From: Nitrosotalea sp.
GTDB taxonomy: Archaea > Halobacteriota > Syntropharchaeia > Alkanophagales > Methanospirareceae
Length of the DNA: 12,570 bases
Direction of reading: 5' to 3'
Assembly: GCA_020725315.1 (NCBI GenBank)
Contig: DYFG01000037.1
Coordinates: 1-12,570, forward strand
Of this stretch, positions 2 through 12,570 are shown one piece after another. Each line of letters opens with the position of its first letter. Position 1 is the stretch's first letter. The notes under the pieces are model-generated. The model had not been told where the DNA came from. It did no database searches and was given only the letters and a program-made list of their open reading frames with translations. Both the position numbers and the translations under genes were made by a program.

Positions 2-53
2 GAACGAAATTCAGAAAACAACATCTTTATAAACTTAAAGTGCGGAATATGGG
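2..53. repeat. Left arm of a perfect 52-bp inverted repeat whose partner is 12519..12570. Position 1 is unpaired only because the window ends, so the IR may extend outward.
   Basis: By-hand reverse complement of 12519..12570 is identical to 2..53 (gaacgaaattcagaaaacaacatctttataaacttaaagtgcggaatatggg). Position 54 versus the complement of 12518 is the first mismatch. Confidence 0.9.
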
Positions 54-580
54 CTGTAAGCGGAAATAGCATCTTCGTAGCTTCCCCTATCAAATGTTTT
101 CTTTGCATCTTCCGATAAAGAGATGCCGATCGCATTTTTACCTGCGATTATGCTCTTCTTCACATTATAAATGTTCTTTTCAATCGCTTTTACAAGCCCT
201 TCATCCTTAAGCCCTTCTGCACCGCTTCTTGCTTCTATGAATTTTCTCAATGATTCCTGGTATTTTCCAATCGATTTCTCATAATCTTTTACTTCGAATA
301 ATCTTGTTGCTTCAGTTGCGAGTCTCTGTGCGGTATCAAATAATCCAGGAGTTGTCTTTTTCCATTCCTCACGCTCCCCTATCTTGACTCTCAGTGTGGC
401 AATGTCTCTCTCCACTTCTTCCACCTTCTTCGGGTCTTTCAGCTTTGATCTTATTGCATTTGCTTCGGATTCGAGTCCTTCCGTGTTCAAAGAGTTTAGT
501 TCCCTCTCGAGTTGCTTTAATCGCTGGACCCTATTTTCATACTCTACAAGTTTCCGTTCTATGAGGGATAGGTCTTTCAT
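35..580 (-). CDS. 181-aa charged coiled-coil protein of unknown function. Its last six codons (PYSAL-stop) lie inside the left IR.
   Basis: Intact ORF. Its ATG overlaps the TGA of the upstream gene as ATGA at 577-580. E/K/R-rich heptad-like sequence and TAA stop at 35-37. Confidence 0.6.
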   Translation of the reverse strand: MKDLSLIERKLVEYENRVQRLKQLERELNSLNTEGLESEANAIRSKLKDPKKVEEVERDIATLRVKIGEREEWKKTTPGLFDTAQRLATEATRLFEVKDYEKSIGKYQESLRKFIEARSGAEGLKDEGLVKAIEKNIYNVKKSIIAGKNAIGISLSEDAKKTFDRGSYEDAISAYSPYSAL

Positions 581-1608
581 TTCAGCATCTCCTCCAGTTT
601 ATCATCTCCTTTATAGCCTTCCTCTTTCAATTGCTCGTATCTGGTCTTTAACACCAGATATTCCTTCCGCTTCTTCTTATTTCTTCTAACTACAAATCCA
701 GCGCCTGTAAAGGCAGCAATGAGCACCACTCCACCGATATAAATGTAGTTATTATTAATTGTTGGAGCAAAGTCAAAGCTGTTTAGCACACCGTCGCCAT
801 CTATATCAATAGCAATGCTCATAGCTTGATTTACAAGCTCTTTTGCTATCTCATATTTCCCGGTGCTTAAAGCCTGTTCTGCCTGAAAAAGTAAAGCCTC
901 CGCTTTAGCCATGTTAAAGCCTTTGGCTTTCTCTGATTCTATTGTTTTCTTTGCCTCTCTTATACCATCCTCGGCAAAAACTTTAAGATTGTCGAAAAAG
1001 TAAACATTATTATCACCAGATCCTGCTGCTATATAAGAGCCATCAGAAGAGACAGAGACACTTTTAACATCTTTACCTGTCTTATAGCTCCAAATAAGCT
1101 TTCCTTCTCTGTTGAAGAAGTAAGTATTGTTATCCCTAGACCCAGCTGCTATATAAGAGCCATCAGAAGAGACTGAGACACCCCAAACCTGATCGCCTGT
1201 CTCATAGCTCCAAATAAGCTTTCCCTCTCTGTTGAAGTAGTAAACATTGTAATCCATAGACCCAGCTGCTATATAAGAGCCATCAGAAGAGACTGAGACA
1301 CTACAAACCGGATAGCCTGTCTTATAGCCCCAAATAAGCTTTCCCTCTCTGTTGAAGAAGTAAACTTTAGTATCATCAGACCCAGCTGCTATATAAGAGC
1401 CATCAGAAGAGACTGAGACACTATTAACCAAACCACCTGTCTCATAGCTCCATAGAAGCCCGTAGTCTTCTTGTGTTCCCTCTGCCTGAGCTACGCTAAT
1501 TAAAAGAAATAAGATTGTAATTATCCCAATTGTCTTCGTCACTTCTTCAGCTTTTTCAGCTAACCTGAGCCACTCCCCTGATGCTCTTTTATTCATTCCA
1601 ATACTCAT
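577..1608 (-). CDS. Membrane-anchored beta-propeller repeat protein (YVTN/PQQ/WD40-like 40-aa blades). It has an N-terminal signal anchor, a C-terminal transmembrane helix and a basic tail.
   Basis: Repeated motif SVSVSSDGSYIAAGSxDxxVYFFNREGKLIWSYxTG occurs four times. Hydrophobic segments are TIGIITILFLLISVAQA (N-terminal) and IGGVVLIAAFTGAGFVV followed by RRNKKKRK (C-terminal). Alternative ATG at 1596. Confidence 0.8.
   Translation of the reverse strand: MSIGMNKRASGEWLRLAEKAEEVTKTIGIITILFLLISVAQAEGTQEDYGLLWSYETGGLVNSVSVSSDGSYIAAGSDDTKVYFFNREGKLIWGYKTGYPVCSVSVSSDGSYIAAGSMDYNVYYFNREGKLIWSYETGDQVWGVSVSSDGSYIAAGSRDNNTYFFNREGKLIWSYKTGKDVKSVSVSSDGSYIAAGSGDNNVYFFDNLKVFAEDGIREAKKTIESEKAKGFNMAKAEALLFQAEQALSTGKYEIAKELVNQAMSIAIDIDGDGVLNSFDFAPTINNNYIYIGGVVLIAAFTGAGFVVRRNKKKRKEYLVLKTRYEQLKEEGYKGDDKLEEMLK
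985..1460. repeat. About four tandem copies of a 120-bp coding repeat (1021-1140, 1141-1260, 1261-1380, 1381-~1460, plus a partial copy upstream), each encoding one propeller blade.
   Basis: The 60-nt sequence lines align in perfect 120-nt register. The block cccagctgctatataagagccatcagaagagactgagaca recurs almost unchanged, as does ctt/ctcatagctccaaataagctttccctctctgttgaag. Confidence 0.9.
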
Positions 1609-1724: not shown

Positions 1725-1940
1725 TCATGACATAATATCCATGGATGCACGTTCAAGTTTAACCCTATCTCCAACCTTCACACACAACACATCCCTCACC
1801 GTTTTATTAATCCTTATCACATCCATGTCATCATTGACACCCAGCGGTTGAACTGTTACAATCTGCTTCTGCTCATCAAACACGATTCTCGCGTGGTCAA
1901 TCTTTCGCAGACCCAATCGTTCCATTATTACAGGATGCAC
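1725..1940 (-). CDS. Small 71-aa hypothetical protein with a GTG start (or ATG at 1925). It could be an AbrB/SpoVT-like swapped-hairpin DNA binder, but this is very tentative.
   Basis: ORF only. The KVGDRVKLE-type segment is weakly reminiscent of looped-hinge-helix proteins. It overlaps ORF 1897..2100 by 44 nt in another frame. Confidence 0.3.
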   Translation of the reverse strand: MHPVIMERLGLRKIDHARIVFDEQKQIVTVQPLGVNDDMDVIRINKTVRDVLCVKVGDRVKLERASMDIMS

Positions 1941-6080: not shown

Positions 6081-7334
6081 TTACAAAAAATCCGTAACGA
6101 CCCTATCCTTGCTCACTTTATCACCCCAATTCACCAGGCCATTGTACAGAAAAAGTGCTAAGGTCAGGATAAAGATGATGACCGTGGGTATGAAGGAGAA
6201 GGAGATTCCAAACAGGTAAACAAAGATCGACGTACTTACCGGCCCTATCAGGAATCCTGAGGTCTTTGCGAATTCAAAGATACCGGAATAAGCGCCATAT
6301 CTTTCCCGCGGCACAATATCCGTTACCCGTGCCTCTATTAACGGTTCGGCAAAGGTAGTGCCGAGGGATATAATAAATATCGTTGCTAAGAGACCTGGAA
6401 GTAACTTCAGAAATCCTAAGGGTATGATAAAGAGGGTGGAAATTAAGAACCCGAGATAGATCATTTTACTTTTTCCAATTCTATCACCCAACTTACCAAG
6501 CGGTATCTGGAAGAGCAAGAAAGGAGCGGCAGAGATACCTAACCAGAGTCCGATTACGAATGGGTTATAACCCAGGTTGCGAAGAAATAAGGGACCGAAT
6601 ACCCATTTGGCTGAATACCAGAAAAAGAGTGATACGGTGCAGAGAGCCAGAACTTTAAGTTCTCGCTGCTGATTGAACTCCCTGAGTAATATTAACAGAT
6701 CATCCTTACCTATTCCGTTTCTCGTGCTGTTTCTATTACTATTACTATCACGGTTATTATCTTTTAATTTGAGGACTAACAGCAACGATGCGAGGAGCAG
6801 AAGAGCCGAGAAGATGTAAGGAGTTCTTATTTCGAATCGCTCTGCCAATAAGCCGCCAATTAAGGGTCCTATAAATATACCTGCATTTGCAAAGGTACCG
6901 TAAAAAGATCTGAACTCGCCCCTCCTTCCGATAGGCGATATATCCTTAATAACAGCCTCACTGATAACCCAGGCCGGGGCCATGGCGATACCAAATGCTA
7001 TTTGCAACCCTATTAATGCATAAAGGCTGGTATTCCTGAAGAATGCGAAAAGCACGCCCGAGATGAGGAGAAACGAAACGATTAACAATCGTTTCTTTCC
7101 GATTTTATCAGAAAGAACACCAACTGGAAGACTGAATGCCAGCCCGGCAAACGAAGCGAGCGCGGCAATGAGCCCAACCAATTCCGCTTTTCCGAGGAAT
7201 TGCTTCAGGTAGAGTGGATGGACGGTGATGAAAGCGCCTATGAATATGCTGAAAAGGAAGAAGATCGTGGAAAATAAGAGTAACTGAGTGCGGGCTTGGG
7301 CTTTCGGCTGTCGTTGTAATCTCGGTTTGAACAT
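6081..7334 (-). CDS. Major facilitator superfamily (MFS) transporter, 417 aa, about 12 transmembrane helices.
   Basis: Two motif-A signatures (GVLSDKIGKKRLLIVS and LGKLGDRIGKSKMIYLGF) sit in loops 2-3 and 8-9. Hydrophobic helices are present throughout, with a hydrophilic central loop (KDNNRDSNSNRNSTRN). The stop is TAA. Confidence 0.9.
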   Translation of the reverse strand: MFKPRLQRQPKAQARTQLLLFSTIFFLFSIFIGAFITVHPLYLKQFLGKAELVGLIAALASFAGLAFSLPVGVLSDKIGKKRLLIVSFLLISGVLFAFFRNTSLYALIGLQIAFGIAMAPAWVISEAVIKDISPIGRRGEFRSFYGTFANAGIFIGPLIGGLLAERFEIRTPYIFSALLLLASLLLVLKLKDNNRDSNSNRNSTRNGIGKDDLLILLREFNQQRELKVLALCTVSLFFWYSAKWVFGPLFLRNLGYNPFVIGLWLGISAAPFLLFQIPLGKLGDRIGKSKMIYLGFLISTLFIIPLGFLKLLPGLLATIFIISLGTTFAEPLIEARVTDIVPRERYGAYSGIFEFAKTSGFLIGPVSTSIFVYLFGISFSFIPTVIIFILTLALFLYNGLVNWGDKVSKDRVVTDFL

Positions 7335-7421
7335 AGATATAAAACACCTTCTCAGCTAAAAAGAATATTATCTGTACGAATGACCCGGTAAAAAATCCAG
7401 GTCCAAATACAAACTATAACT
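7335..7421. promoter_or_regulatory. 87-bp AT-rich divergent intergenic region between the MFS gene (-) and the phosphatase gene (+). It is a likely bidirectional promoter region. No SD precedes the phosphatase ATG, so the transcript may be leaderless.
   Basis: The region is AT-rich (gatataaaac, aaaaagaatattatc, caaactataact), and both flanking genes start at its edges. Confidence 0.35.
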
Positions 7422-8336
7422 ATGCATGCGGAAGTTGAGGAGTGGGTGAAGAAGGCGTTTGAGGCGCGTGTGGAGGAGTTCTCAGCACTGATTAATGAAG
7501 CAAGGGAGGTGTTAAAGCGCGAGAACGGGTTACGAGCAGGAAGCGGATTGGTTCGCATAGCTCCCCAGGCAGTGAGGAAGGTTGCCGTTATAGGCGATAT
7601 ACACGGTGATATCGAAAGCCTTGTTCACGTATTGAGGGATACGGATGTGGAAACCGCTGATAGAATTATCTTTCTTGGTGATTATGGCGACAGGAGCGAG
7701 GAAAGTGTTGAAGTTTACTATCTCCTTTTGACGCTCAAGGCATTAGCGGGGATTGGGGAAAAATTAATTCTGCTAAGAGGTAATCATGAAGGCCCGCCGG
7801 ACATGCCGGTCATGCCCCATGACCTCCTGTTATTCTTTACGAGCAAATATGGAGCTCGGGGGAGGGAGTTGTACAACCGCATAAGAGAACTTTGGGAGTA
7901 TTTACCGTATGCTGTAGTGGTCACCGGCAGCTATCTGATGGTGCACGGTGGGGTGTCTGCCACGGTGACTTCTAGTGAGGATATTGCGTATGCACGTGAA
8001 ACGCATCCCTCGTCGAGCACCTTTGAGGAGATACTCTGGAGCGACCCGATTGAGGGCAAGGGCTATTTTAGTTCGCTGCGGGGTGCGGGCAGGATGTTTG
8101 GTGAGGATATCACCGATGCGGTTTTTCGTGCGGTAGGCGTGAAGACGTTGATAAGAAGCCATGAGCCGTGCGAGGGTGTTGACGTGCGGCAGAGAGGAAA
8201 GATTCTAACCCTATTTTCACGGAAGGGGGCGCCCTATTTCAACAAACGAGCCGCATATTTGGTGTTGGATGAAACTATACTTCGAGACGCAAAAGATGCC
8301 GGGGAGCTGGCGAGAAATGCTGCACGGATATGGTAA
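7422..8336 (+). CDS. PPP-family serine/threonine protein phosphatase (calcineurin-like metallophosphoesterase; PP1-arch/PrpA-like).
   Basis: Canonical PPP motifs GDIHGD, GDYGDRS (GDxxDRG) and GNHE occur in the correct order and spacing. The stop is TAA. Confidence 0.9.
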   Translation: MHAEVEEWVKKAFEARVEEFSALINEAREVLKRENGLRAGSGLVRIAPQAVRKVAVIGDIHGDIESLVHVLRDTDVETADRIIFLGDYGDRSEESVEVYYLLLTLKALAGIGEKLILLRGNHEGPPDMPVMPHDLLLFFTSKYGARGRELYNRIRELWEYLPYAVVVTGSYLMVHGGVSATVTSSEDIAYARETHPSSSTFEEILWSDPIEGKGYFSSLRGAGRMFGEDITDAVFRAVGVKTLIRSHEPCEGVDVRQRGKILTLFSRKGAPYFNKRAAYLVLDETILRDAKDAGELARNAARIW

Positions 8337-8548
8337 AGAAGAAAGCATAAAGGAGAAAGAAGGTCGTTGAGTGAGATGCTTGCTTCAGTACTTTCGAAAC
8401 CTATGAAGATCTGAGTAAGATAAAAAGCCCGTTAGATTTAAAAACGAAGAATTCGTATATTGAAAATGAGGTTGAAGGAGATGAAGGTCAGCAGTCAGCT
8501 GAAAGGAGGTATATACGAAGTAAGTTTCGGATATCATCCCAATTTGGA

Positions 8549-9085
8549 ATGATATACGACATTAATGTCGGATATACCGAAGTTAGGCGACATTTTGCTT
8601 GGCGGTGCGAGAAAATGAACGAAAAAACAATAAACAAAGATAAAAGGTATCTGCTTATATTGCCATGCTCCAAACGTAAGAAGAGAATCTCTGAGGCACG
8701 CGCCATAGAATTATATGATGGCCCATTTTATAGGATGGTTAGAAAGAGCGGGTTGATGAACTTAAATATTTTAATTCTATCGGCAAAATACGGCTTAATT
8801 AATGCTTGTGACAATATTTCTTCTTATGACCAAGTAATGAGTGCTCAGAGGGCGAAAGAGTTAGCGGAAGGAGTTAAACTTAAATTAGAGAAAGTACTAG
8901 AAAATAACGGTTACGACGAGATATTCATAAATCTTGGTAAAACATACACGCTTGCGTTAGAAAACAGCAACAAAATTCTTAACGATTACGATGTTTACTG
9001 GGCAAGAGGGCAAATCGGAGAAAGATTAAATCAACTTAAAAGATGGTTGCGTAGAATCGAGTTGGAAAATGGTGGTAAATTATGA
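8549..9085 (+). CDS. 178-aa hypothetical protein, first gene of the helicase-nuclease operon. The true start may be the internal ATG (MNEKTINK). Its function is unknown.
   Basis: Its TGA stop overlaps the helicase ATG as ATGA at 9082-9085. Conserved-looking segments are KRYLLILPCSKRK, ELYDGPFYRMV and ILILSAKYGLINA. GC is low. Confidence 0.6.
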   Translation: MIYDINVGYTEVRRHFAWRCEKMNEKTINKDKRYLLILPCSKRKKRISEARAIELYDGPFYRMVRKSGLMNLNILILSAKYGLINACDNISSYDQVMSAQRAKELAEGVKLKLEKVLENNGYDEIFINLGKTYTLALENSNKILNDYDVYWARGQIGERLNQLKRWLRRIELENGGKL

Positions 9086-9645
9086 TTACTTGGAATGACT
9101 TTCAAAATACTGTTTTTACTCAACTAGGTAGAGACATTAGAAGACAAAGTAACCCTGACCAAAACGCTGCTATACAAGCCCCTCCAAATCACTCTTTATT
9201 CATAGTCTCTGGGCCAGGCAGTGGAAAGACAACAGTAATTACCCTGAGGGTTCTGAAATTAATTTTTGTGGACGACATAAATCCCTTAAATATTTTAGTT
9301 ACAACTTTTACACGAAAGGCTGCCGCTGAACTGAGATCAAGGGTTCTTGGATGGGGAGACCAACTGAGACGTGCATTTATAAATAATTCATCTTACTATC
9401 CCGTTAGGAATCAACTACAAAGATTAGATTTCAACAGAATAATTACGGGGACTTTGGACAGTATCTCGGAGGAAAAATTAGGAGAGTACCGTGCTCCAGG
9501 CACTCCACCACCACCAGTAGTCATTGAGGATTTTGTCTCAAATGCATTGATGATAAGGGTTGGGCTTTTTGGGCACGGTAGACACAATAATCCGGTTCTC
9601 AGAGATTATATCATCCAATTAAGTGGATCTGCCTTTGGTGGTTAA
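9082..9645 (+). CDS. UvrD-like helicase N-terminal fragment (Q motif, Walker A, motif Ia/Ib).
   Basis: GPGSGKTT and TFTRKAAAELR are present. The ORF ends with TAA at 9643-9645, 23 nt after the next fragment starts in the +1 frame. Confidence 0.8.
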   Translation: MITWNDFQNTVFTQLGRDIRRQSNPDQNAAIQAPPNHSLFIVSGPGSGKTTVITLRVLKLIFVDDINPLNILVTTFTRKAAAELRSRVLGWGDQLRRAFINNSSYYPVRNQLQRLDFNRIITGTLDSISEEKLGEYRAPGTPPPPVVIEDFVSNALMIRVGLFGHGRHNNPVLRDYIIQLSGSAFGG

Positions 9646-10174
9646 CGTTGGTGAGATGAGTGCTACGCTAAGGGAGATAAAAGATAGGTTCTTTCATGAC
9701 AAAGTAAATGTTAATCGCTTCAGGAGTCTGAGTAACCACCCAGGTATTGGGGTGGCGTGCGATGCTATAGATGATTATAACCAAGAATTACAAAGTCGCC
9801 TTCTTTTCGATTTTGCGAGACTGGAGATAGAATTCCTTGAACGGCTTCGAGCAGGCGTGTTGAATAATTTTCTTCAAAATATAAGATTCATTTTGGTTGA
9901 CGAATATCAGGACACAAACTTACTTCAAGAACAAATCTATTTTGAGCTTGCGAGAGCAGCATTACAAAATGGAGGCAGCATCACAGTTGTTGGTGATGAT
10001 GACCAATCTCTCTATCGTTTTCGTGGTGCAACAGTCGATCTTTTTCAAGCATTTCCAAATAGAGTCAATAATCACTTGGTGATAAGCCCTGTGACTGTGT
10101 ATCTCTCTCAAAACTACCGCTCTACGCCGAATATTGTACGTTTTGTAAATGATTTTGTTACCTTAGATACGTGA
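9623..10174 (+). CDS. UvrD-like helicase middle fragment (motifs II, III, IV), GTG start.
   Basis: DEYQDT, GDDDQSLYRFRGA and QNYRS are present. It ends at an in-frame TGA, and the frame reopens immediately after. Confidence 0.8.
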   Translation: MDLPLVVNVGEMSATLREIKDRFFHDKVNVNRFRSLSNHPGIGVACDAIDDYNQELQSRLLFDFARLEIEFLERLRAGVLNNFLQNIRFILVDEYQDTNLLQEQIYFELARAALQNGGSITVVGDDDQSLYRFRGATVDLFQAFPNRVNNHLVISPVTVYLSQNYRSTPNIVRFVNDFVTLDT

Positions 10175-10189
10175 TTTCAAAACGCCAGA

Positions 10190-11461
10190 GTGACAGGTAA
10201 ACCCCGGATTAGAGCATCACGCCCAACAACACCCCAACGTTATATTAATTATCCAGTTTTAGGAATGTTCCGGGACGATGTTGGCACCCTTGCCCACGAG
10301 CTAGCGCAATTTGTTCATAGAGTAGTTCATAGGGGGGGATTTCAAATAAGGCATCAAGGTAACCGTTATACAATACGAATTAGTCCTCAAGGTGGCTCAC
10401 CAACGGACGTTGCTATGTTGTGCAGTTCACCACGAGAGTTGGCTTCTAATGGTAATCCAAGACTTCCTTTACTTTTGGATGATGAGTTGAGGCGCATGAG
10501 CCCACCAATTCAAGTTTTTAATCCAAGAGGTCAAAATTTAGAGAGAATCCCAGAAGTTCAAAGATTATGCGGTTTAATTTTGGAGTGTATAGATCCTGAT
10601 AGCAACATCCAAAATAGCATAGTGACATTGCCTCAAGCAGCGGTAACTATCTTTAATGCTTGGCGTGCCGAGGCTACGAACCTTGTAAATAGTAATCCAT
10701 CTCCCACCGCTCCAATCAATCTTAGACAATTCGTCAATGCGTGGCAGCGCAGAACCCCCTTACGTAGAAGAATGCAGACCAGAGAGGAAGTACCATTGCT
10801 AGATCTGGTTTACAAGTTGGTCACATGGATACCTCCTATGCAAAATGATATAGAAGGTTTAGTGTATCTAGAGGCAATAACTCGGGCAATCAGTCAAAGT
10901 GCATTGTTTGGTAACTTTGGTGCTGAAATAATCTTTGACCCTAGTAATCCTAATAGTAGGTTAGAGCAAGCTTCAATAAGAGAAGCACTTTGGAATATAT
11001 TTATGCCACTTGCAACTGGTGCAATCGAAATTGATGAAGACCTTCTTGAAACTTTACCAAGCGACAGAATAAACATCATGTCAATTCATCAGGCAAAAGG
11101 ATTAGAGTTTCCTCTGGTGATAGTGGATGTAGGAAGTGACTTTAGATATGATCATTGGAAGCAAGCATTTAAACGCTTTCCACGGCTAAACAATATAGGA
11201 AGAGTGGATGGTGTAAAAAGCCTGAATATGGAAGATGAATTAAGAAAGCACTCCCCCTTAGGACAATCTTCAAGATCAAGTTTAGATAGAGCATTCGATG
11301 ATTTAATAAGACATTATTTTGTAGCCTTTAGTAGGGCCCAAGATGTCCTATTATTAGTTGGTTTAAACTCTGTAAGAAGTGGTATTCCCAACATCGCCAC
11401 AGGATGGGATAGAAATGGAAGCTGGTATTGGAGGAGGTTAACCAATTTGGTGCATATTTAG
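10190..11461 (+). CDS. UvrD-like helicase C-terminal fragment (2B-domain region, motifs V and VI), GTG start, in the same frame as 9623..10174.
   Basis: IHQAKGLEFPLVIV and YVAFSRAQDVLLLVG are present. The TAG stop at 11459-11461 abuts the SD of the next gene. Confidence 0.8.
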   Translation: MTGKPRIRASRPTTPQRYINYPVLGMFRDDVGTLAHELAQFVHRVVHRGGFQIRHQGNRYTIRISPQGGSPTDVAMLCSSPRELASNGNPRLPLLLDDELRRMSPPIQVFNPRGQNLERIPEVQRLCGLILECIDPDSNIQNSIVTLPQAAVTIFNAWRAEATNLVNSNPSPTAPINLRQFVNAWQRRTPLRRRMQTREEVPLLDLVYKLVTWIPPMQNDIEGLVYLEAITRAISQSALFGNFGAEIIFDPSNPNSRLEQASIREALWNIFMPLATGAIEIDEDLLETLPSDRINIMSIHQAKGLEFPLVIVDVGSDFRYDHWKQAFKRFPRLNNIGRVDGVKSLNMEDELRKHSPLGQSSRSSLDRAFDDLIRHYFVAFSRAQDVLLLVGLNSVRSGIPNIATGWDRNGSWYWRRLTNLVHI

Positions 11462-11465
11462 GAGG
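11461..11465 (+). promoter_or_regulatory. Shine-Dalgarno GGAGG for the nuclease gene, 7 nt upstream of ATG 11473.
   Basis: ttaGGAGGaaaaaatATG. Confidence 0.6.
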
Positions 11466-11472
11466 AAAAAAT

Positions 11473-12537
11473 ATGTCATTGTCTGTTAGACCGAGACCAT
11501 ACATAATCCCTGAGTATAGTTTAACTGGCGACCTACTAGCATATCTTACCTGCGGGTTGCAATATAGATACCACAATAAGGGCTCTCTCCCTCCCTCTAC
11601 ACCTGTTCAGCTATGGTTTGGAGAATTCATACACAGTGTTATGGAAGAAGCATATCGTAGATGGCAAGATGAAACCTCGGAACAGCGTTTTCCATGGAAT
11701 TGGGATCCTGACGTACGCGATATCGAACTTGAAGTTGAAAGGAGACTAGAGGCAAGAGGTCTGTATGCTCCATTCGGTCTTTTTTGCGCATACGGATTGA
11801 CCCAAAGCCGACAATGCACCTGCTATACTAGAAATCCACCTCGTCAACATCAACTTATTGCGAGTCAGAGAACTGAGTCAGCAATCAATACTTGGGGACA
11901 ACACCTATTTCCACTTATTGCAGAAGCCGAAGTGAGACTTAAGGGTAGCAGAGACATGCCAAACTATCAACCCAATATTAGCAGGTCTAACTATTACGGA
12001 GTTACAGGCGTTATAGACGTAATAAGCTCTGTTAACCTTATCAATGCGCCACCGGGAAATTTAATTCTTCACTATATTCATCAGCATACGGAAGTGAGCC
12101 AAATAATAAATAATCTCGCTTCACAAGAGTATGAAATTATCATTGATTATAAAGGTATGAGAAGACCTGCTACTAATAGCCGTCTCTGGCAACATCATGA
12201 ATGGCAGATACTTACCTATACTTGGCTTAGGTCTCAACAACCGCAATCACGACCTATAGCTGCAGGAATAATTTTCTATCTTAATGAGTTGGCTTTATCC
12301 GGGGAAGATGTGGAAGAATTAAGAGATGATGTCGCGAGCAGTCTTACGGATGTGATGCCATCCGGACAGGACTTAAATAGAATACAAAACTGGCGGCGAG
12401 GAACGCCACCGCCCGTCCTCACACGTCCGTTTAGGGAGCAAAGGTCAATTAGAATTATACCAGTCAATGATACCGCTGTGCAAAATAGCCTTCAAAGATT
12501 TGATAATGTTGTATCTACCCCATATTCCGCACTTTAA
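11473..12537 (+). CDS. RecB-family PD-(D/E)xK nuclease (Cas4/AddB-like PDDEXK_1 fold), 354 aa from the SD-preceded ATG. The upstream-extended ORF 11428.. has no SD. The last five codons lie in the right IR.
   Basis: It has the N-terminal Cas4/RecB-like motif SLTGDLLAYLTCGLQYRY, motif II GVIDVIS, motif III IIIDYKG (hhhDYK) and the downstream QxxxY (QILTY). The stop is TAA at 12535-12537. Confidence 0.7.
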   Translation: MSLSVRPRPYIIPEYSLTGDLLAYLTCGLQYRYHNKGSLPPSTPVQLWFGEFIHSVMEEAYRRWQDETSEQRFPWNWDPDVRDIELEVERRLEARGLYAPFGLFCAYGLTQSRQCTCYTRNPPRQHQLIASQRTESAINTWGQHLFPLIAEAEVRLKGSRDMPNYQPNISRSNYYGVTGVIDVISSVNLINAPPGNLILHYIHQHTEVSQIINNLASQEYEIIIDYKGMRRPATNSRLWQHHEWQILTYTWLRSQQPQSRPIAAGIIFYLNELALSGEDVEELRDDVASSLTDVMPSGQDLNRIQNWRRGTPPPVLTRPFREQRSIRIIPVNDTAVQNSLQRFDNVVSTPYSAL

Positions 12538-12570
12538 GTTTATAAAGATGTTGTTTTCTGAATTTCGTTC
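12519..12570. repeat. Right arm of the perfect 52-bp inverted repeat. It contains the last five codons and the TAA stop of CDS 11473..12537, followed by a T-rich tract.
   Basis: Exact reverse-complement identity to 2..53. It runs to the last base of the window. Confidence 0.9.

Follow-up and report, generated by a model that had tools for sequence, protein, structure and literature searches.

To our knowledge, 7-deazaguanine in cellular DNA has so far been tied to large bacterial dpdA-K islands, and in archaea it is known only from viruses. In the bacterial Dpd system (dpdA-K; Salmonella Montevideo), DpdC, a member of the DUF328/YaaA family, converts dPreQ0 to dADG in DNA, and the ATPase DpdB is required for preQ0 insertion (PMC10164549). 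In a second type of system, a stand-alone ArcS core domain (ArcS2) acts together with DpdA2 to form dG+ in DNA; the ArcS motif opens with PC-x3-K (PMC10516641). Here we describe a helicase-nuclease locus in 12,570 nucleotides of archaeal DNA (GenBank assembly GCA_020725315.1, contig DYFG01000037.1), hereafter called the window. The initial annotation of this DNA had described the locus as an operon for an uncharacterised small protein, a UvrD-family helicase and a RecB-family nuclease, and had regarded it as a candidate defence module. We consider it likely that what remains here is a mobile archaeal four-gene Dpd-like module in an inactivated form; the module consists of a DUF6884 protein, a UvrD-like helicase, a Cas4/AddB-like iron-sulfur (Fe-S) nuclease and DpdA. 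Intact clusters probably represent a compact and hitherto undescribed relative of the bacterial Dpd defence system, which marks DNA, and the copy in the window is almost certainly non-functional.

We examined the neighbourhoods of intact nuclease and DUF6884 homologues and then surveyed 80 species genomes with purpose-built hidden Markov models (HMMs). Two contexts were found among the relatives. In context A, to which the clade of the window belongs, the genes are linked to dpdA; in context B, that of Methanobacteriales, the helicase-nuclease pair stands alone. The gene order in context A is DUF6884, helicase (~790 aa), nuclease (~396 aa) and a gene of the tRNA-guanine transglycosylase (TGT) family, and dpdA lies 3′ of the nuclease gene in nearly all close relatives. 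The full set of four genes is present at L007/L017, L008, L009/L010, L014, L015, L016, L018, L040, L042, L093 and L094. Hosts of this four-gene order are Methanoperedens, Methanotrichaceae, Methanoregula, Ca. Pyrohabitans, an uncultured archaeon and contigs binned as Dehalococcoidia. Methanococcus aeolicus Nankai-3 and Methanothermococcus sp. Ax23, whose genomes are complete, encode a more divergent version of the cluster. An Altiarchaeota contig (L012) carries helicase, nuclease and DpdA genes; this contig begins inside the helicase gene and the upstream gene is out of view. Conservation of the neighbourhood in other genomes, which the initial annotation had proposed to check, is thus found, with the gene order kept. 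A literature search gave no paper describing this architecture; one key study lay outside the search, and an earlier mention is not excluded.

The TGT-family gene of the relatives encodes DpdA. Its product scored 420-440 bits against the equivalog model NF041059 of NCBIfam (cut-off, 200) and matched the PADLOC DpdA model with an E value of 5e-130. Moreover, the alignment with the solved Salmonella DNA-guanine transglycosylase (7ui4) was full-length (E, 8e-89) and included the region of the zinc motif. Because dpdA is included, the family can be placed among the Dpd-type 7-deazaguanine DNA modification systems and is not an unclassifiable module. Directly 3′ of dpdA, two loci (L014, 11774-12463; L015, 12572-13330) carry a gene for a queuosine-precursor (preQ0/preQ1) transporter of the YhhQ family (TIGR00697, 166 bits; cut-off, 51), and a homologue of the same blast family (f27) is also present in L013. 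Therefore, the cluster is tied to the supply of the 7-deazaguanine base.

The intact clusters resemble the bacterial Dpd system in that a YaaA-superfamily protein accompanies DpdA, as DpdC does in bacteria, and in that genes for an ATP-dependent helicase and a nuclease occur in the same operon; the genomic context is likewise island-like. In contrast, the small protein of the relatives belongs to DUF6884 and not to DUF328/DpdC, and a single UvrD-type superfamily 1 (SF1) helicase and a Cas4/AddB-type nuclease stand in place of about eight restriction genes, in an archaeal host. The DpdC feature (DUF328/PF03883 amidohydrolase) was not found in the operon proteins. No PADLOC or NCBIfam match to DpdB (ParB-like ATPase) was obtained among the operon proteins of the window or the relatives, and the Pfam lists of the neighbouring genes contain no ParB domain. 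DpdD-K were also not found: the helicase fits GajB/RTasHel models and the nuclease Cas4 models, and no Dpd restriction component was matched by either protein.

Several intact clusters contain additional genes. At L009 (1008-4655) and L010 (1966-5583), genes for a 611-621-aa protein and a HerA-type ATPase (PADLOC HerA, 2e-94) are inserted between the DUF6884 and helicase genes; the former protein has no Pfam, PADLOC or NCBIfam match. At the two Methanococcales loci, L093 (8276-16116; M. aeolicus, CP000743.1, within 245,049-263,498) and L094 (8233-14193), a gene for a Bud32/MAD6-like kinase lies upstream, and in M. aeolicus a GmrSD-type (type IV restriction) gene lies between the nuclease gene and dpdA. 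These two clusters occupy the same chromosomal site, between the genes for leucyl-tRNA synthetase (LeuRS) and PAC2/FTR, and McrBC is encoded nearby in Methanothermococcus.

As shown in Table 1, the copy in the window differs from the intact clusters. The three genes do not form the intact operon that had been proposed: the helicase gene is split, the nuclease gene is truncated and dpdA is absent, and only the DUF6884 gene looks intact. A tblastn search of the window with two DpdA proteins from relatives gave no dpdA at E<=1e-5. Of the proposed defence module, there remain an acquired helicase and nuclease led by an uncharacterised small protein; the pseudogene, the truncation by an insertion sequence (IS) and the absence of dpdA speak against a working unit.

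Table 1. Positions of the features of the locus and of the insertion-sequence termini in the window
Feature	Position	Strand	Remarks
Left junction and upstream intergenic region of the acquired module	8365-8614		Similarity to related genome stops at 8364; G+C content of 8337-8614 is 0.388
DUF6884 gene, 156 aa, looks intact	8615-9085	+	ArcS-C1/YaaA/DpdC-like fold; CxxxK and LSAxxG motifs
UvrD/PcrA-like SF1A helicase pseudogene	9082-11461	+	Frame +1, 9082-9639; extra base, 9640; frame +2, 9641-11458; in-frame TGA, 10172-10174
Cas4/AddB-type PD-(D/E)xK nuclease gene, 3′-truncated	11473-12537	+	Authentic coding sequence, 11473-12516; last codons and stop come from IS sequence
Outward-facing terminus of IS1634-family IS, right copy	12519-12570		Opens ~2.2-kb element in contig L092
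IS terminus in inverted orientation, left copy	2-53		52-nt inverted repeat, 100% complementary

The helicase gene is a pseudogene. In the list of open reading frames (ORFs), it appears in three pieces (9082-9645, 9623-10174 and 10190-11461). When intact relatives (791-796 aa) were used as tblastn queries, residues 1-185 were found in frame +1 and residues 186-791 in frame +2, with no residue missing. Because there is no residue gap at the frame change, the second frame must follow one extra base, at 9640. The in-frame TGA aligns opposite residue ~363 of the intact relatives. Both lesions were found as exact sequence matches in all three assemblies that span the helicase gene (L001-L003), in which the ORF split was called alike. 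Therefore, the lesions are not errors. These two lesions aside, the helicase is still 67-72% identical to intact relatives and no others were found, which suggests that the inactivation was recent.

The best named relatives of the helicase are PcrA, AddA and UvrD, and the Pfam models UvrD-helicase and UvrD_C match its fragments. According to the initial annotation, one helicase gene carries every motif of superfamily 1A (SF1A). All motifs are indeed readable in the translations (GPGSGKT, TFTRKAA, DEYQD, GDDDQSLYRFRGA, YLSQNYRS, HQAKGLEFP and VAFSRAQD), but the frameshift and the TGA spread them over three ORFs. The SF1A motifs Q, I, Ia, II, III, IV, V and VI stand in one polypeptide in the intact relatives (785-811 aa) and not in the window. 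We also weighed a programmed frameshift and a selenocysteine codon but discarded both, given the lack of a shifty signal, the His/Tyr residues opposite the TGA and a third lesion, by which the next gene is cut short.

This next gene, which encodes the nuclease, is separated from the helicase frame by the reported 11-nt spacer with a Shine-Dalgarno sequence (TAG, 11459-11461; AGGAGG, 11460-11465; ATG of the nuclease gene, 11473). The motifs that had been noted (N-terminal Cys, IDVIS, EIIIDYKG and QILTY) are all present, and the catalytic residues D180, E219/D223-Y-K225 and Q243...Y247, which are invariant in an alignment of 18 sequences, are kept in the window copy. However, this copy has 354 aa, compared with 394-404 aa in the homologues (~396 aa is typical). 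The homology ends at 12516 (residue ~346-348); the protein is divergent from residue 347 and ends at residue 354. Residue C27 is invariant in the nuclease family, and nearly all full-length homologues also have a CxxCxxxxxC motif (CTACDFKTFC) at the C terminus. The four-Cys 4Fe-4S feature is missing from the window nuclease, from which the truncation has removed the three C-terminal cysteines. The N-terminal extension of ~150 aa described previously is better regarded as an insertion, given that the first Fe-S cysteine, C27, and the match to Pfam PDDEXK_1 (1e-9, residues 23-69) are already N-terminal. Cas4 models match the nuclease weakly, under the NCBIfam cut-off, and a sequence-profile search of solved structures with the nuclease profile gave nothing meaningful.

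The truncation was caused by an insertion of an IS1634-family element: this insertion, at codon ~347 of the nuclease gene, removed the Fe-S ligands and whatever lay 3′ of them. The right-hand inverted repeat (IR) beside which the operon had been placed is real, starts exactly at the end of the nuclease homology and is part of a perfect 52-nt terminal IR, but it is the IS terminus that cuts off the nuclease gene. The element turned up in a metagenome scan, on an unrelated contig (L092, 150-2340), where its ends are CCCATATTCCGCAC and GTGCGGAATATGGG and its flank is unlike those of the window. Its transposase scored 216 bits against the IS1634-family model NF033559 of NCBIfam (cut-off, 100) and matched DUF4277 (9e-39). 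Thus, a transposase gene lies between terminal IRs, and three different flanks are known (the two window ends and L092), as is expected of an IS1634-family member; the transposase ORF of L092 looks interrupted. All five contigs that carry the nuclease gene end 8-60 nt past its stop codon, as expected because a repeat boundary lies there. The terminal IR could in principle be the genuine end of a linear element or an assembly hairpin; both ideas were discarded, and IS copies preferred.

The L092 copy of the IS holds short repeated GC-rich palindromic units (ggggcagagccccg). At the left end of the window, an ORF of 181 aa (35-580, minus strand; coiled-coil/MIT-like) reads into the left IS copy and ends with PYSAL followed by a stop codon, as does the nuclease ORF. 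This ORF may have been truncated by the IS as well. The 12.5-kb contig between two inverted IS1634-family copies has a composite-transposon-like arrangement.

The small protein had been described as 178 aa from an upstream ATG at 8549. It probably comprises 156 aa from 8615, given that the homology to relatives begins 3′ of 8615 and that other annotations give 156 aa. The overlap of its gene with the helicase gene as ATGA is as reported (helicase ATG, 9082-9084; DUF6884 TGA, 9083-9085). The protein scored 51.9 bits against Pfam DUF6884 (PF21818), above the gathering cut-off of 30. In an alignment of 43 homologues, the motifs C18-S-K-R-K22 (CxxxK) and L55-S-A-K-Y-G60 (LSAxxG) are conserved, and C18, S19, K22 and S56-G60 are invariant. 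The match to the ArcS core domain (Pfam DUF5591, PF17884) was marginal (27.7; cut-off, 26), with PC-x3-K kept as LPCSKRK, and the score with the YaaA model of Pfam was under the threshold. PADLOC gave a match to PDC-M57A together with weak DpdC matches. A fold search placed the protein in the ArcS-C1/YaaA/DpdC fold class; a sequence-profile search of solved structures with the DUF6884 profile gave nothing meaningful, so that only the fold search was informative. The CxxxK/LSAxxG motifs and a YaaA-like DNA-binding cleft have been described for DUF6884, and one member, YfjM, has been reported as an interactor of DNA lesions (PMC11701544).

Among other described systems, the viral modules of DpdA and ArcS2 (Vibrio phage nt-1 and Sulfolobus virus STSV2) are similar in combining a DNA transglycosylase with a small, separately encoded protein of the ArcS-C1 (DUF5591) fold class, and the ArcS2-type partner further modifies DNA-bound preQ0. 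In contrast to the clusters described here, they lack a helicase-nuclease pair, serve anti-restriction and use viral types of DpdA (DpdA2 and others) instead of the cellular bDpdA-like type of the relatives; moreover, DUF6884 retains PC-x3-K and not the rest of the ArcS motif. The initial annotation stated that the gene content fits neither Gabija nor Hachiman, and we agree. Although the helicase matches GajB HMMs (E down to 8e-36, in an intact relative), these matches cover the generic UvrD core only, the helicase has ~790 aa as compared with ~500-600 aa in GajB, and no operon protein matches GajA (OLD-family ATPase/TOPRIM nuclease). The DUF6884 protein matches PDC-M57A (2e-12) of the PADLOC candidate system PDC-M57, but the helicase, the nuclease and DpdA match no PDC-M57 component.

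AddAB and RecBCD also couple a UvrD-like SF1A motor with a RecB-family nuclease, and the nuclease family described here shares the Cys layout of AddB/Cas4 (one N-terminal and three C-terminal). However, the motor and the nuclease are separate and much smaller proteins, the helicase has no nuclease domain, a second inactive helicase or Chi-scanning subunit is lacking, and the clade of the window is linked to DpdA. The scores with the AddA (141 bits; cut-off, 708), RecB (91; 696) and AddB (20; 487) models bear out that the module is neither addAB nor recBCD.

Two points made previously, a higher A+T content and horizontal acquisition, were upheld. The G+C content of the operon is 0.406 as compared with 0.445 in the rest of the window, and that at third codon positions (GC3) is 0.32-0.36 as compared with 0.37-0.54 in the other genes. 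A related genome (contig L095; 93% identity) covers only 6143-8364 of the window: the similarity stops 28 nt past the stop codon of the phosphatase gene, after which that genome has aconitase-family genes where the window has the module. The lower GC and GC3, this break and the patchy, high-identity clade support horizontal acquisition; the comparison covered only one relative, with which the left part of the window is likewise not shared. Between distant lineages, clade A nucleases share 68-83% identity, without conservation of their flanks. The flanking genes of clade A include AbiEii, a MazE/PIN toxin-antitoxin pair, GmrSD, McrBC, HNH and transposases, and intact copies reside in the chromosomes of cultured methanogens between housekeeping genes, such as those for LeuRS and FTR.

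A second decayed copy was found on a contig binned as Bacillota (L013, 3649-6452), in which the helicase gene and the nuclease gene have both been broken into two pieces. The dpdA gene of this contig is internally deleted, so that residues 1-26 are fused to residues 374-393. Because L013 has also decayed, such turnover recurs.

On the basis of these comparisons, the following mechanism can be proposed. DpdA (DNA-guanine transglycosylase) would exchange guanine in host chromosomal DNA for preQ0. DUF6884 would then turn the DNA-bound nitrile into a further derivative, much as dADG is formed by DpdC and dG+ by ArcS2. The helicase-nuclease pair would degrade DNA in an ATP-driven, AddAB-like manner and spare marked DNA, and the helicase may also fill the ATPase role that DpdB holds in bacteria. 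The link to Mre11/Rad50 in clade B would suggest DNA-end processing as the basic activity of the pair. In the window, one IS event would have taken the end of the nuclease gene and, presumably, dpdA. If the modification gene was lost, the restriction half may have become useless or toxic and its inactivation may have been favoured. In other words, the intact clusters may be a minimal archaeal 7-deazaguanine modification-restriction system in which an SF1 helicase replaces DpdB, DUF6884 modifies preQ0 in DNA and the pair from the Mre11-Rad50 context is an effector checked by the mark. We put this full scheme forward tentatively, with slightly less than even confidence. This minimal system sometimes appears with a preQ0 transporter, a kinase or a HerA pair.

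If this proposal is correct, 7-deazaguanines would be expected in the genomic DNA of cultured methanogens, for example Methanococcus aeolicus, and the DUF6884 domain would gain its first role, the modification of preQ0 already in DNA. The four-gene archaeal version would offer a tractable minimal system in which to learn how DpdA finds its target and is powered in the absence of DpdB, and how the mark is read by a nuclease. The window would then be a snapshot of system turnover, in which IS-mediated loss is followed by decay. The family deserves study even though the window copy is dead.

Several observations weigh against the assignment to a four-gene Dpd-like module. The DUF6884 gene is missing from two DpdA-linked lineages (L011 and L019), and Theionarchaea and Methanofastidiosia show the cluster without it. 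Conversely, an intact trio of DUF6884, helicase and nuclease genes at L096 (5168-9185) has no dpdA within 8 kb downstream, with an ORF-free gap of ~750 nt after the nuclease gene, and L029 has no dpdA in the 1.35 kb of contig left 3′ of the nuclease gene. A former dpdA 3′ of the nuclease gene is not visible in the genome of the window, where every contig ends in the IS. The sequence of DUF6884 is weakly similar to those of DpdC and ArcS and is without the KPY-x2-S-x2-H part of the ArcS motif. The restriction and 7-deazaguanine roles of the helicase-nuclease pair are ones that we infer from sequence. Furthermore, an excess of defence genes in the flanks over a control was not demonstrable when 94 DpdA-linked neighbours were compared with 94 Methanobacteriales neighbours (PADLOC, E<=1e-10); this comparison was uninformative because both sets gave many matches, with those of the control driven by generic helicase and SMC-like domains. 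The last two points concern Methanobacteriales. In Methanobacterium, an mre11/sbcD-like gene (403 aa) and a rad50-like gene (900 aa), both in the same direction as the pair, lie immediately before it. Moreover, the pair is vertically conserved in Methanobacteriales, and its basal activity may be DNA repair and not defence.

These last points bear on the explanation that the pair is a housekeeping DNA-end-resection machine, namely an archaeal split analogue of AddAB that replaces HerA-NurA, with DUF6884 as a lesion-binding accessory and the DpdA link reflecting repair or marking physiology. In context B, the clusters of Methanobacterium and Methanobrevibacter contain the pair without DpdA and DUF6884. 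The Methanobacterium loci with mre11/rad50-like neighbours are L024 (2434-9898), L025, L027, L034, L036 and L088. In Methanobrevibacter (L050, L069-L091; around 7500-21200), the pair is syntenic in about 40 species, with herA-mre11-rad50 ~8 kb downstream and a gene for an MrfA/YprA-type helicase (DEAD and MZB) divergently upstream. The slot after mre11/rad50 is the usual position of herA-nurA in archaeal double-strand break repair clusters. The pair in Methanobacteriales does look housekeeping, and may be an unrecognised AddAB-like end-resection machine. The AddB/Cas4 Fe-S signature of the nuclease, the proximity of the helicase to PcrA, AddA and UvrD and the reported interaction of YfjM with DNA lesions are in accord with such a role. 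However, the Mre11 and Rad50 assignments are far under the NCBIfam cut-offs. A neighbour-joining tree of the nucleases has three groups, a DpdA-linked clade that includes the window, the Methanobacteriales clade and the DpdA-linked Methanococcales. Accordingly, the window copy belongs to another clade, one with a patchy distribution among phyla, high identity, no conserved flanks and links to DpdA and the preQ0 transporter. Repeated decay, in the window and in L013, would also be unusual for housekeeping repair. An ordinary housekeeping locus with an unrelated small enzyme, which the initial annotation had named as the alternative, is therefore not what the clade of the window shows, although its Methanobacteriales sister has that appearance. 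We judge the housekeeping explanation to be unlikely for the region as a whole.

Far less probable is the explanation that the region is a module with which a virus or mobile element modifies its own DNA with 7-deazaguanine as anti-restriction, the helicase and nuclease serving replication or recombination of the element. DpdA and an ArcS2-type partner are used in this way by phages and archaeal viruses (PMC6884629, PMC10516641), and the window is bounded by IS copies. Moreover, one relative, L096 (IMGVR_UViG_3300006094_000039), is on a contig classed as viral by IMG/VR. It is the sole such relative found: one locus in 2.9 million viral contigs stands against 222 species genomes. In addition, the DpdA of the relatives fits the bacterial cellular equivalog model and the Salmonella enzyme, intact copies are chromosomal in cultured methanogens, and no virion or replication genes were seen in the flanks.

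We give even less credence to the idea that the three genes are a functional stand-alone helicase-nuclease defence operon, whose helicase is made by recoding or from split subunits. The readable motifs, the identity of the fragments to intact relatives, the retained translational-coupling signals and the L096 trio without an adjacent dpdA are what this idea would predict. Nevertheless, two independent disruptions of the helicase would have to be overcome: no shifty signal can be recognised at the slip site GGT-G-GTT, and the relatives have His or Tyr, and not Cys or Sec, opposite the TGA. The positions of the splits, one inside the Pfam UvrD-helicase N-terminal domain and one just after it, do not favour split subunits, and no intact relative has a helicase split in this way. 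The nuclease, moreover, is without three of its four Fe-S cysteines.

De Bruijn graph assemblies can yield perfect terminal inverted repeats, but the notion that the frameshift, the stop codon and the terminal IR are sequencing or assembly artefacts of one contig can practically be dismissed. The operon sequence agrees fully, or to within one mismatch, among five assemblies, of which two are JGI metagenomes, two come from SRA runs and one is a GenBank metagenome-assembled genome; both lesions recur in all three that cover the helicase gene. In addition, the repeat continues in the unrelated contig L092 as part of a genuine IS1634-family element with a third, different flank.

The window is essentially an entire metagenomic contig, and matching sequence is present in JGI 3300029892 Ga0246235_101006 (12,619 nt), in a GenBank metagenome-assembled genome and in three more assemblies; the source samples are JGI 3300029892/3300029893, SRR13164376 and SRR5011273. 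Rfam and tRNA scans of the window gave no match. Its left part contains archaeal cellular genes, namely those for WD40, SPFH/Band 7 and TPR/MIT-like proteins, a major facilitator superfamily transporter and a metallophosphatase. A phosphatase of the window falls, at 90% identity, into one cluster with a protein named as Methanophagales (ANME-1), so that the host is probably an ANME-1 archaeon. The WD40 gene (577-1608, minus strand) contains a 120-nt unit in 3.9 tandem copies at 990-1459 (85% matches); these units are recently duplicated WD40 blades. A 71-aa ORF (1725-1940, minus strand) adjoins the genes for the SPFH/Band 7 zinc-ribbon protein and the TPR/MIT-like proteins. Its sole match, under the Pfam cut-off, is to the N-terminal domain of CDC48, and it could be a gene fragment or a stand-alone domain.

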